Source: Escherichia phage vB_EcoM_VR25
DNA length: 64,000 nucleotides
Sequence record: NC_028925.1
Direction: 5' to 3' (one strand)
The notes beneath the pieces are model-generated. The model worked only from the letters and a program-made list of their open reading frames with translations, was not told the DNA's origin and made no database searches. The translations under genes were made by a program, and so were the position numbers. Of this stretch, positions 28,290 through 29,018 are shown one piece after another; within the stretch, counting starts at the first letter, position 1, and every line of letters begins with the position of its first letter.

Positions 28290-29018
28290 ACAATGAATTA
28301 TGCTTTAATATATGAGAATTTAATGAACCGAGCCAAATCTAGAAAATTGACTGGATACAAAGAATCTCACCATGTTGTTCCTCAATGTTTAGGCGGACCA
28401 GATACAAAAGAAAACCGAGTTGATTTAACGCCGGAAGAGCATTATCTAGCACATCAACTATTGGTAAAAATTAATCCGGAACATAAAGGATTGAAATATG
28501 CTGCCTATATGATGACTATATCACCAGATGGTCGTCGGCAGAATAATAAATTATTCGGTTGGGTAAAGCGAGATTACCTAAACAATAGAATTCAATCATC
28601 TGGAATGAAAGGGAAAAAGCATAAACCCGAATCAATTCAATTGATGAAAGATAAACGTGCTCTCCAAGAAATCACCGAAACAACTAAGGCCAAAATATCT
28701 AAAACAAAAACTGGCGTAAAATTTACAAAAGAAGCACTAAAATCATTTAATGAAAAACGTTCCGCAAACCAAGCATGGATTGATTCCAATTTTAGGCCAT
28801 GTAAAGAAAGCACCAAATCTAAAATTGGCGATGCTAATAGGGGACGTGTTTTTGATAAAAAGACCTGCCCTCATTGTGGTAAAACTGGAGCAGGTCCTAA
28901 TATGAAACGGTATCATTTTGATAATTGCAAATCAAAAGTCGCCAAATGCGACCTGCCAGCATTCAACACCAATACGACGCCACATCTCGACAACATTTTG
29001 CCTATCGTCAACGGCTAA
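28290..29018 (+). CDS. free-standing HNH homing-endonuclease-like protein
   Basis: Start at [10 protein letters not shown] within ORF 28254..29018; HNH core [12 protein letters not shown]…[11 protein letters not shown]; Cys cluster CPHCGK near C-terminus; opposite strand to the surrounding early-gene array. Confidence 0.8.

Follow-up and report, generated by a model that had tools for sequence, protein, structure and literature searches.

What is a gene for an HNH endonuclease doing on the plus strand in the middle of minus-strand early genes, and why does it run into the 3' end of a conserved enzyme gene? The question is raised by a stretch of 64,000 nucleotides (nt) of the genome of Escherichia phage vB_EcoM_VR25 (NC_028925.1), here called the window. 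In the window, an open reading frame (ORF) at 28293-29018 on the plus strand encodes 241 amino acids, followed by a stop codon. Its last part overlaps pseT (28932-29840, minus strand), the gene for the 302-residue polynucleotide 5'-kinase/3'-phosphatase. A preliminary description of this DNA, made from the letters alone, had seen an opposite-strand HNH ORF alone between the cd array and pseT, and the arrangement is indeed that of a plus-strand ORF between the minus-strand genes cd.4 and pseT. In our view, the locus is probably a free-standing, selfish, MobE-like homing cassette, which stands tail-to-tail with pseT, carries a rewritten end of this gene, and encodes an enzyme that would cut the pseT 3' end of relatives that lack the cassette.

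The distribution and sequence pattern of the gene are those of a mobile homing endonuclease gene, and on genome comparison its mobility is well supported. Only nine of the 306 records that match this region carry the gene (seven distinct phages and two RefSeq duplicates). The preliminary description had allowed for an immobile gene that is present at this site in all relatives, which these counts contradict. The comparison with genomes lacking the gene, which it had also suggested, defines the junction. Junction alignments show that the insert absent from empty-site relatives measures 699 nt (28233-28931, plus strand), and that the pseT stop and the cd.4 start share bases (TAATG) in the empty sites of TH15, VR20, VR5, Bp7 and ESCO10. 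In TH15, the empty site is surrounded by flanks that are 97% identical to those of the window (97.1% by BLAST up to 28232). The endonuclease gene is free-standing, outside any intron or intein, between the conserved genes pseT and cd.4. The view of the preliminary description that this is a mobile, free-standing HNH homing endonuclease is thus borne out: the enzyme is of the T4 Mob type, its presence is sporadic, and the gene is more conserved than its flanks.

The degree of this conservation is best seen in the comparison of the window with Shigella phage SP18. The gene is 98.0% and the overlap with pseT 97.7% identical, whereas identity falls to 82% in cd.4 and to about 62% in the next 280-360 nt of pseT. 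The latter value reflects two deeply divergent allele classes of pseT, which are about 62% identical over nt 91-450 from the stop. The endonuclease gene is present in both classes at 98% identity, with flanks at 62-86%. According to mismatch maps, the block that is shared between divergent backbones extends from 28249 to 29010-29021. Between the two pseT classes, the transferred block ends at 28207-28249 on the left and at 29010-29021 on the right, 80-90 nt inside pseT. Phage TH57 is a natural recombinant, with an SP18-like left flank, a VR7-type gene and about 430 nt of VR7-type pseT. Recombinants of this kind would be consistent with super-Mendelian inheritance and co-conversion of flanking markers. 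All seven copies of the gene are intact, and the core of the ORF (codons 1-213) differs among the seven carriers at 20 synonymous and 4 non-synonymous positions. The gene is under purifying selection, and the cassette has spread recently among Gaprivervirus backbones.

The association with pseT itself is older than this spread. Salmonella phage KM16, of the genus Moonvirus, has an ortholog with 69% nucleotide identity at the same place and with the same TCA/TGA junction with pseT. KM16 is the sole carrier among the Moonvirus relatives that were found, and Moon and CF1, which are 95-96% identical to it, lack the gene. Four metagenomic relatives with 60-81% amino acid identity are located on T4-like contigs, and all of them converge on the 3' end of the polynucleotide kinase/phosphatase (PNKP) gene. 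Convergence on the pseT 3' end was thus found in all checked members of the subfamily with 56-81% identity (KM16 and the four metagenomic contigs). Judged from this conservation, the lodging site at pseT and the tail-to-tail geometry are ancestral to this endonuclease subfamily. The suggestion that the overlap marks a recent insertion into a resident gene is therefore right only in part. The spread among Gaprivervirus is recent, but the lodging at pseT is old, and the overlapped piece of pseT travels with the cassette.

The part of pseT that travels with the cassette has been rewritten. Compared to TH15, which belongs to the same pseT class, the window has 21 mismatches in 28933-28962 and 28989-29004, and beyond these tracts the divergence is about 2%. 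The differences define two clusters on the minus strand. Cluster 2 (28932-28962, 11 differences from TH15 in 31 nt) comprises the last codons of pseT (...QVAFGDF*, stop TGA). Cluster 1 (28989-29006, 10 differences in 16 nt) is the proposed region of nicking or recognition. Both clusters recur in the other pseT class when SP18 is compared with DK-13 or VR20, and they end 73-82 nt from the stop. An independent replicate comes from Moonvirus: in KM16, there are 29-31 mismatches to Moon and CF1 in the last 82 nt of pseT, and none in the next 190-260 nt. At the protein level, cluster 1 leads to D-R-Q-N-V-V instead of D-R-S/T-Q-V-V, and thus changes S/T-Q of PseT to Q-N. More generally, empty alleles encode DDR(S/T/A)QVVEMW, whereas carriers encode DDRQN..., DDRDT..., DDRNS..., DDRDR... 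and similar ends. The same two PseT residues are altered in KM16 with respect to Moon and CF1, and in the carriers of both genera the adjacent Asp codon is changed from GAC to GAT and the Arg codon from CGN to AGR. With the 99-nt pseT end of the window as the query, identity of at least 91.6% was confined to nine HNH carriers and phage P896, which has a different endonuclease at the site, and the next best match was at 81% (among the best 40 of 942 matching records). In these comparisons, the recoded pseT end (the last 73-82 nt) appears to be strictly linked to occupancy of the site.

In homing, the break must lie inside the converted tract. The target would therefore be bounded by the cd.4 start on one side and by about nt 90 of the pseT 3' end on the other, and it is likely within the pseT 3' end. 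The guess of the preliminary description that the target lies in pseT is thus supported, by the end of the block 80-90 nt inside pseT and by a recoding that is found only in occupied genomes. The recoding presumably makes the carrier genome uncuttable, while keeping PseT functional. Another role was considered and rejected: the changes do not serve to keep the HNH ORF open by removing antisense stops, because empty-site alleles are also open to the same TAA.

A further pointer to the target comes from the upstream region of the endonuclease gene. An exact match to the T4 late-promoter consensus, TATAAATA, is located at 28259-28266 on the plus strand, 26 nt upstream of the ATG. The window has 11 matches to TATAAATA, compared to an expectation of 4.65. 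The SP18, KM16 and L024 cassettes retain the box (L024 is the metagenomic contig SRR14654594_1295, which contains the closest relative outside Gaprivervirus, with 81% amino acid identity), and more distant cassettes have the variants CATAAATA, TGTAAATA and AATAAATA. From the box, we infer late transcription of the endonuclease gene. Its first two nucleotides are overlapped by a 22-nt element, CCACATCTCTACTACTTGAGTA (28239-28260, plus strand), which is a copy of unrecoded pseT. Of its 22 positions, 20 agree with CCACATTTCAACTACTTGAGTA, the pseT allele at the empty site of ESCO10 and VR5. This match is the sole one of its type in the window, and there were none in 100 shuffles. The mirrored stretch of pseT reaches from the E-M-W codons into recoded cluster 1, where the carrier's own pseT reads CCACATCTCGACAACATTTTGC. 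The 22-nt element is also kept in the SP18, KM16 and L024 cassettes, and is present in a recognisable form in the orthologous cassette L023.

The element could be either an operator for autorepression, as in the case of I-TevI, or a scar or relic of the insertion. The same target sequence follows from either interpretation. In seven cassettes, local alignments of the 90 nt upstream of the gene with pseT 3' ends did not detect a relic of the old pseT end longer than the 15-22-nt element, and the scar interpretation therefore gains no extra support. We consider it possible, if rather doubtful, that the locus is a self-contained unit of three parts: an HNH gene without a stop of its own, a portable recoded pseT end of about 80 nt that would provide both immunity and the stop codon, and a 22-bp decoy of the target over the late promoter for self-shutoff. 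Such a design would be one not yet described for Mob-type enzymes. If it applied, the 22-mer would give the recognition sequence directly, and free-standing HNH endonucleases would make use of I-TevI-style autorepression.

The preliminary description had estimated the overlap of the two coding regions at about 87 nt, antisense to some 29 codons of pseT. It is exactly 87 nt (28932-29018), and consists of the last 28 codons of pseT together with its stop. The codons of the two frames coincide, and position 1 in the HNH frame pairs with position 3 in the pseT frame. The pseT stop TGA is read in antisense as codon S214 (TCA), and the final codon of pseT, TTT (Phe), as K215 (AAA). The TAA of the endonuclease gene, the first stop in register, corresponds to the antisense of a pseT Leu codon TTA. 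The same ORF end and the same 87-nt overlap are present in seven independently sequenced phages (VR7, TH40, TH57, SP18, PSD2001, 212 and P479). The overlap is therefore not a sequencing artefact, and the true stop of the HNH gene does not lie upstream of pseT, which the preliminary description had kept in mind as a possible outcome of resequencing.

Residues 216-241 and the TAA (28938-29018, plus strand) are a tail without homolog, which is entirely antisense to pseT. Homologs at other loci (T4 MobE, Bp7, PMBT1 and others) end 2-5 residues past the conserved CK.K, and the protein of the window has 26 more residues. In orthologous cassettes at pseT, the tails comprise 9 (KM16), 9 (L024), 6 (L025), 1 (L023) and 1 (L026) residues, with pseT overlaps of 36, 36, 27, 4 and 4 nt, respectively, and the tail ends where the pseT gene of the respective genome offers an antisense stop. 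Among the seven carriers, the changes in the overlap are 0 synonymous and 7 non-synonymous in the HNH frame, and 6 synonymous and 1 non-synonymous in the pseT frame. In the HNH frame, this differs from the 20:4 ratio in the core (Fisher p = 1.3e-4). In the AlphaFold2 (AF2) model, the tail has a predicted local distance difference test (pLDDT) score of about 50 and no secondary structure, and is predicted to be disordered. In view of the absent homolog, the predicted disorder, the opposite substitution patterns in the two frames and the variable lengths, the tail appears to be a passive by-product of read-through and not a functional part of the enzyme. The earlier suggestion that the two reading frames constrain each other is not supported. 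The constraint is one-sided: pseT sets the sequence, with six of seven changes synonymous, and all seven are non-synonymous in the HNH frame. Long convergent overlaps beside endonuclease genes can thus be passive read-through rather than dual coding, which should be a warning for annotation.

A comparable case is found in the Klebsiella phage PMBT1. Its paralogous HNH gene between 45.2 and 46 (L019 601-1320) is inverted and shares 14 nt with the 3' end of the convergent gene 46 homolog. In this endonuclease family, it may be common for a gene to read on into a convergent neighbour.

On sequence evidence, the endonuclease itself is a member of the Mob-type (MobE-like) HNH family, with an N-terminal HNH domain, NUMOD3 repeats and a C-terminal C2HC ribbon. 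A tblastn search detects relatives in over 1,000 phage records, including T4 MobE (E = 2e-23; 31.6% identity over residues 1-218). The 'homing endonuclease' family PHROG 655 is detected with E = 3e-63. NUMOD3 is the sole Pfam family that passes with the single protein (E = 2.3e-5 over three stretches), an NCBIfam search with the single protein returned nothing meaningful, and a phmmer search of PDB sequences gave only marginal matches to the HNH domains of IscB and McrA (E = 0.07-0.15). Because the single protein misses the Pfam threshold for HNH, the assignment of this domain rests on the homology to MobE, the match to PHROG 655 and the relatives, 70 of which were used to build a family profile. 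This profile matches the HNH motif of EcoKMcrA (E = 5e-4) and Cas8-HNH (E = 8e-3), with H26-H27, N41 and H50 aligned. Pfam HNH is detected at 0.01 or better in 46 of the 70 relatives, and NUMOD3 in 49. N41 and H50 are invariant across all 70, and H26 and H27 nearly so. HNH (beta-beta-alpha-metal) nucleases have, on a beta-beta-alpha element, a conserved His as the general base, an Asn with a structural role, and a His or Asn as metal ligand.

The AF2 model has a mean pLDDT of 82.7 and shows three features. The HNH catalytic motif (residues 21-54 with H26, H27, N41 and H50; 28353-28454, plus strand), which is supported by the family profile, by Pfam for the relatives and by the model, coincides with a beta-beta-alpha unit at residues 24-60 (strands 24-27 and 42-45, helix 47-60) with pLDDT above 90. 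The core motif quoted in the preliminary description was found at residues 25-50. Helical repeats at residues 112-182 of the model match the NUMOD3-type repeats detected by Pfam (approximately residues 105-185; 28605-28847, plus strand), which presumably bind DNA. A beta-hairpin and a helix at residues 189-211 bear C192, C195, H208 and C212, the residues of the C2HC zinc ribbon, which was recognised from both alignments and model and extends to the conserved end ...NCKSK (28857-28937, plus strand). The four ribbon columns and the CK.K end are invariant in the alignments. A Foldseek search with the whole elongated model gave only weak matches, with HNH proteins at the top at E values of about 1.

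Taken together, these observations suggest the following course of events. Late transcription of the endonuclease gene would start at its own TATAAATA promoter and run against the direction of the surrounding early genes. In a mixed infection, the enzyme would nick or cut the pseT 3' end of a related phage without the gene. The cut is predicted within the last approximately 90 nt of pseT, most likely at CCACAT(C/T)TCAACNACTTGAGT(A/G), which encodes E-M-W...V-V-Q-S/T on the other strand, and the break should occur near CCACATCTCAACGACTTGACTG in the empty-site pseT end. Recombinational repair would then copy the cassette in between pseT and cd.4. With the cassette would come the recoded last 73-82 nt of pseT, so that PseT stays functional and the new carrier is presumably uncuttable. 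The endonuclease ORF, which has no stop of its own, would be read antisense into pseT up to the first in-frame stop, and acquire the 26-residue tail as a by-product. The copy of the unrecoded target that abuts the promoter box would serve as a self-repression operator as in I-TevI, or would be a relic of the original insertion.

T4 MobE is the only Mob-type HNH endonuclease that has been characterised, and the protein could not be cloned or assayed in vitro (PMC2790892). Its strand-specific nick in T2 nrdB falls at nt 122-126, within a polymorphic patch that adjoins a conserved block, and the sequence of this patch is variant in mobE carriers (Wilson & Edgell 2009, PMC2790892). The mobE gene, between nrdA and nrdB, has no promoter of its own, points in the same direction as its neighbours, and is limited by a terminator inside it (PMC2790892). 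The enzyme of the window is homologous to MobE over residues 1-218 (the tblastn identity of 31.6% becomes 36% in the alignment), and both proteins have an N-terminal HNH domain and a C-terminal CPHCGK...H.D.CK.K zinc ribbon. Both genes are free-standing between conserved genes. The likeness may extend to a target in a polymorphic patch beside a conserved block of a flanking gene, which in the case of pseT would be the patch at 28989-29006. In contrast to the promoterless and co-oriented mobE, the gene described here is inverted and has its own TATAAATA box. The proposed target is pseT instead of nrdB, the ORF lacks its own stop and reads 87 nt into the flanking gene, the cassette carries the recoded end of the target gene, and the sequence of the NUMOD3 linker region differs.

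Other known systems resemble the cassette in single aspects. The operator of I-TevI mimics the homing site and lies over the enzyme's own late promoter, and binding and repression have been demonstrated (Edgell et al. 2010, PMC2988022). In both systems, a near-copy of the (here proposed) homing site overlaps the gene's own T4 late promoter, with agreement at 20 of 22 positions here and at 15 of 20 for I-TevI. However, I-TevI is an intron-encoded GIY-YIG enzyme, and the putative operator upstream of the HNH gene, deduced from sequence, may just as well be a scar of the insertion. The GIY-YIG gene segD of T4 is oriented against its neighbours, and no promoter has been identified for it (PMC2988022). 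Like segD, and like the HNH genes between 45.2 and 46 in Bp7 and PMBT1, the gene of the window is free-standing and oriented against its neighbours, but these genes have other sites and targets. VR7ORF236w and SP18gp235 represent the same gene, at the same site and with the same 87-nt overlap.

The reading as a homing cassette has to be weighed against other explanations, and several observations speak against it. Pfam HNH gives only E = 0.14 with the endonuclease alone, and the regulation would differ from that of the sole characterised relative. The identity band of 90-95% to the pseT end counts five records, only two of which are among the matches listed; the other three may be partial matches. 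In the distant cassette L023, the pseT segment is not recoded alike, and the upstream element matches its own pseT at just 12 of 22 positions by our count. Moreover, P896 has the recoded patch together with a different endonuclease, and the patch can thus not be assigned to the HNH enzyme alone. This last observation also fits the explanation that the recoded end and the 22-mer are uninformative about target recognition, that the recoded end is hitch-hiking donor sequence from the lineage in which the cassette originated, that the 22-mer is a neutral scar of the insertion, and that the enzyme cuts elsewhere, possibly hundreds of bases away. It would explain why P896 shares cluster 1 and why the similarity to pseT upstream of the gene is limited to 22 nt, without a longer relic, and it agrees with the finding that free-standing endonucleases often cut far from their genes (PMC2988022). 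We nevertheless regard it as unlikely. The transferred block, which must contain the break, ends at 29010-29021 and 28207-28249, two genera have changes at the same two PseT residues and in the same Asp and Arg codons, the part of pseT that the 22-mer mirrors is exactly the recoded one, and the pattern matches the mapped case of MobE and nrdB.

It is quite improbable that the gene is a defunct or domesticated remnant, immobile like I-TevIII in T4, with a patchy distribution due to ordinary recombination and loss. Decay does occur in the family, since the L024 copy appears to be frameshifted or to have in-frame stops near the 5' end, and three GenBank records lack an annotation of the gene. In contrast, the seven copies from the carriers are intact, with the 20:4 ratio of synonymous to non-synonymous differences and with conserved catalytic residues. 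The 98% identity of the gene next to pseT sequence at about 62% requires a recent horizontal move of a block of about 770 nt with very short flanks. In KM16, the isolated occurrence among the Moonvirus relatives and the sharply bounded recoded tract indicate a gain, and not a loss elsewhere. True dual coding of the 87-nt overlap, with a tail that is needed by the endonuclease or an antisense that regulates pseT, and with mutually constraining frames, is very improbable. Dual coding would accommodate that all seven carriers have the ORF open to 29018, that identity among them is 94-100% in the overlapped segment, and that late transcripts from TATAAATA would be antisense to pseT. It would not account for a tail that is predicted to be disordered, with a pLDDT of about 50, for orthologous tails of 1, 6, 9 and 26 residues that are set only by the position of the antisense stop in pseT, or for homologs at other loci that stop 2-5 residues past CK.K. 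Nor would mutual constraint lead to overlap changes that are non-synonymous in the HNH frame in seven of seven cases and synonymous in the pseT frame in six of seven. The divergence of the overlap equals that of the gene (about 2%), which fits co-transfer better than extra constraint. The homing cassette thus remains the preferred interpretation.

As a homing cassette, the locus would be a second Mob-type system, a natural one for which the comparative data are unusually clean. In two genera, phages with and without the gene have near-identical backbones, the transferred block is mapped to within about 20 nt on each side, and a specific 22-bp target sequence is predicted. It would illustrate how the end of a conserved enzyme gene can be rewritten by a selfish gene and taken from phage to phage, which also matters for how mosaic boundaries are read in T4-like genomes. 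VR7 and SP18 already have an annotation for the gene, under names that are based on similarity only. A literature search that did not cover the VR7 genome paper found no paper on an endonuclease next to pseT, and none on the target of VR7ORF236w/SP18gp235, the structure of the cassette or the recoding of pseT.

The pseT/cd.4 site is a hot spot that exists in four states: empty, with a T4_Y13H-family gene, with the HNH gene on the plus strand, or with a GIY-YIG/NUMOD3 Seg-like gene on the minus strand. Paralogous relatives of the HNH gene occupy other hot spots, between nrdA and nrdB, between 45.2 and 46, and between baseplate-wedge and head-closure genes. In DK-13 (L012 2320-2520) and CF1 (L022 793-978), a T4_Y13H-family gene for 61-66 amino acids (Pfam E = 4.6e-25) lies between pseT and cd.4, and the pseT end is of the unrecoded, empty-site type. 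In P896 (L004 2326-3092, corresponding to 28233-28931 of the window), a Seg-like endonuclease gene with GIY-YIG and NUMOD3 domains is found on the minus strand at exactly the same site. P896 retains the recoded pseT cluster 1, and its left junction, CATAGGGGTTTCCAT, is similar to the left end of the HNH cassette, CATAGGTTTCCACAT. One endonuclease gene appears to have displaced another in this state. In the L024 contig, the 5' part of the endonuclease gene (2417-2500) has in-frame TAG TAG or a frameshift, and gene callers start at an internal Met; the copy may be decaying, or the assembly may be in error. The two pseT allele classes are 86-89% identical further upstream than nt 450 from the stop, and are mixed among Gaprivervirus and Dhakavirus genomes. 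A mosaic boundary inside conserved pseT (29019-29400) adjoins the endonuclease hot spot.

A minus-strand hairpin, GGTCGC-ATTTG-GCGAC followed by TTTTGATTT (28954-28936), is located in the carrier-specific last codons of pseT and is terminator-like. With it, pseT transcription would end before the endonuclease gene is traversed in antisense. A comparable hairpin is present at the pseT end of P896, and not in KM16. We have given no weight to an intrinsic terminator at the pseT end, because 0.7 sites are expected by chance in the scanned region and the site is absent from KM16. Downstream of the endonuclease gene, the scan did not find a terminator-like site on the plus strand.

The identity of the neighbouring genes is clear. 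The pseT product matches Pfam HAD_PNKP (E = 2.8e-56) and AAA_33 (E = 1.8e-22), in agreement with the annotation of VR7. The left neighbour, cd.4 (28032-28232, minus strand), was assigned from the VR7 annotation and the junction alignments, and has lost its overlap with pseT in this phage. The insertion took away the native ribosome-binding site of cd.4, which lies within the last pseT codons in empty-site genomes. In carriers, in-frame ATGs at 28244 and 28289 (minus strand, 28233-28289) may extend Cd.4 N-terminally (MWKPMNN...).

For the endonuclease ORF, the preliminary description had given the extent as 28290-29018. Its end is correct, since both the ORF listing and the raw sequence place the TAA at 29016-29018, but the likely start is the ATG at 28293, three bases 3' of the earlier position. 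The longest mechanical version of the ORF opens at TTG 28254. A Shine-Dalgarno-like AAGAGGA, read from the sequence, is present at 28280-28286 (plus strand), 6 nt before the ATG. The region is 98.3% identical to Escherichia phage vB_EcoM-VR7 (genus Gaprivervirus), where the ortholog VR7ORF236w is named "putative mobile nuclease, similar to T4 MobE" and has the same 87-nt overlap. SP18 annotates the gene (SP18gp235) as 'site-specific intron-like DNA endonuclease'. The DNA of the gene is 99.6% identical to VR7 and 97.9% to SP18. In the GenBank records of PSD2001, 212 and P479 (L007, L008 and L009), the intact 241-codon gene is not annotated, and one of these records calls part of the region 'similar to 3'-phosphatase 5'-polynucleotide kinase'. 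The missing annotation is probably due to the convergent overlap, which confuses gene callers.

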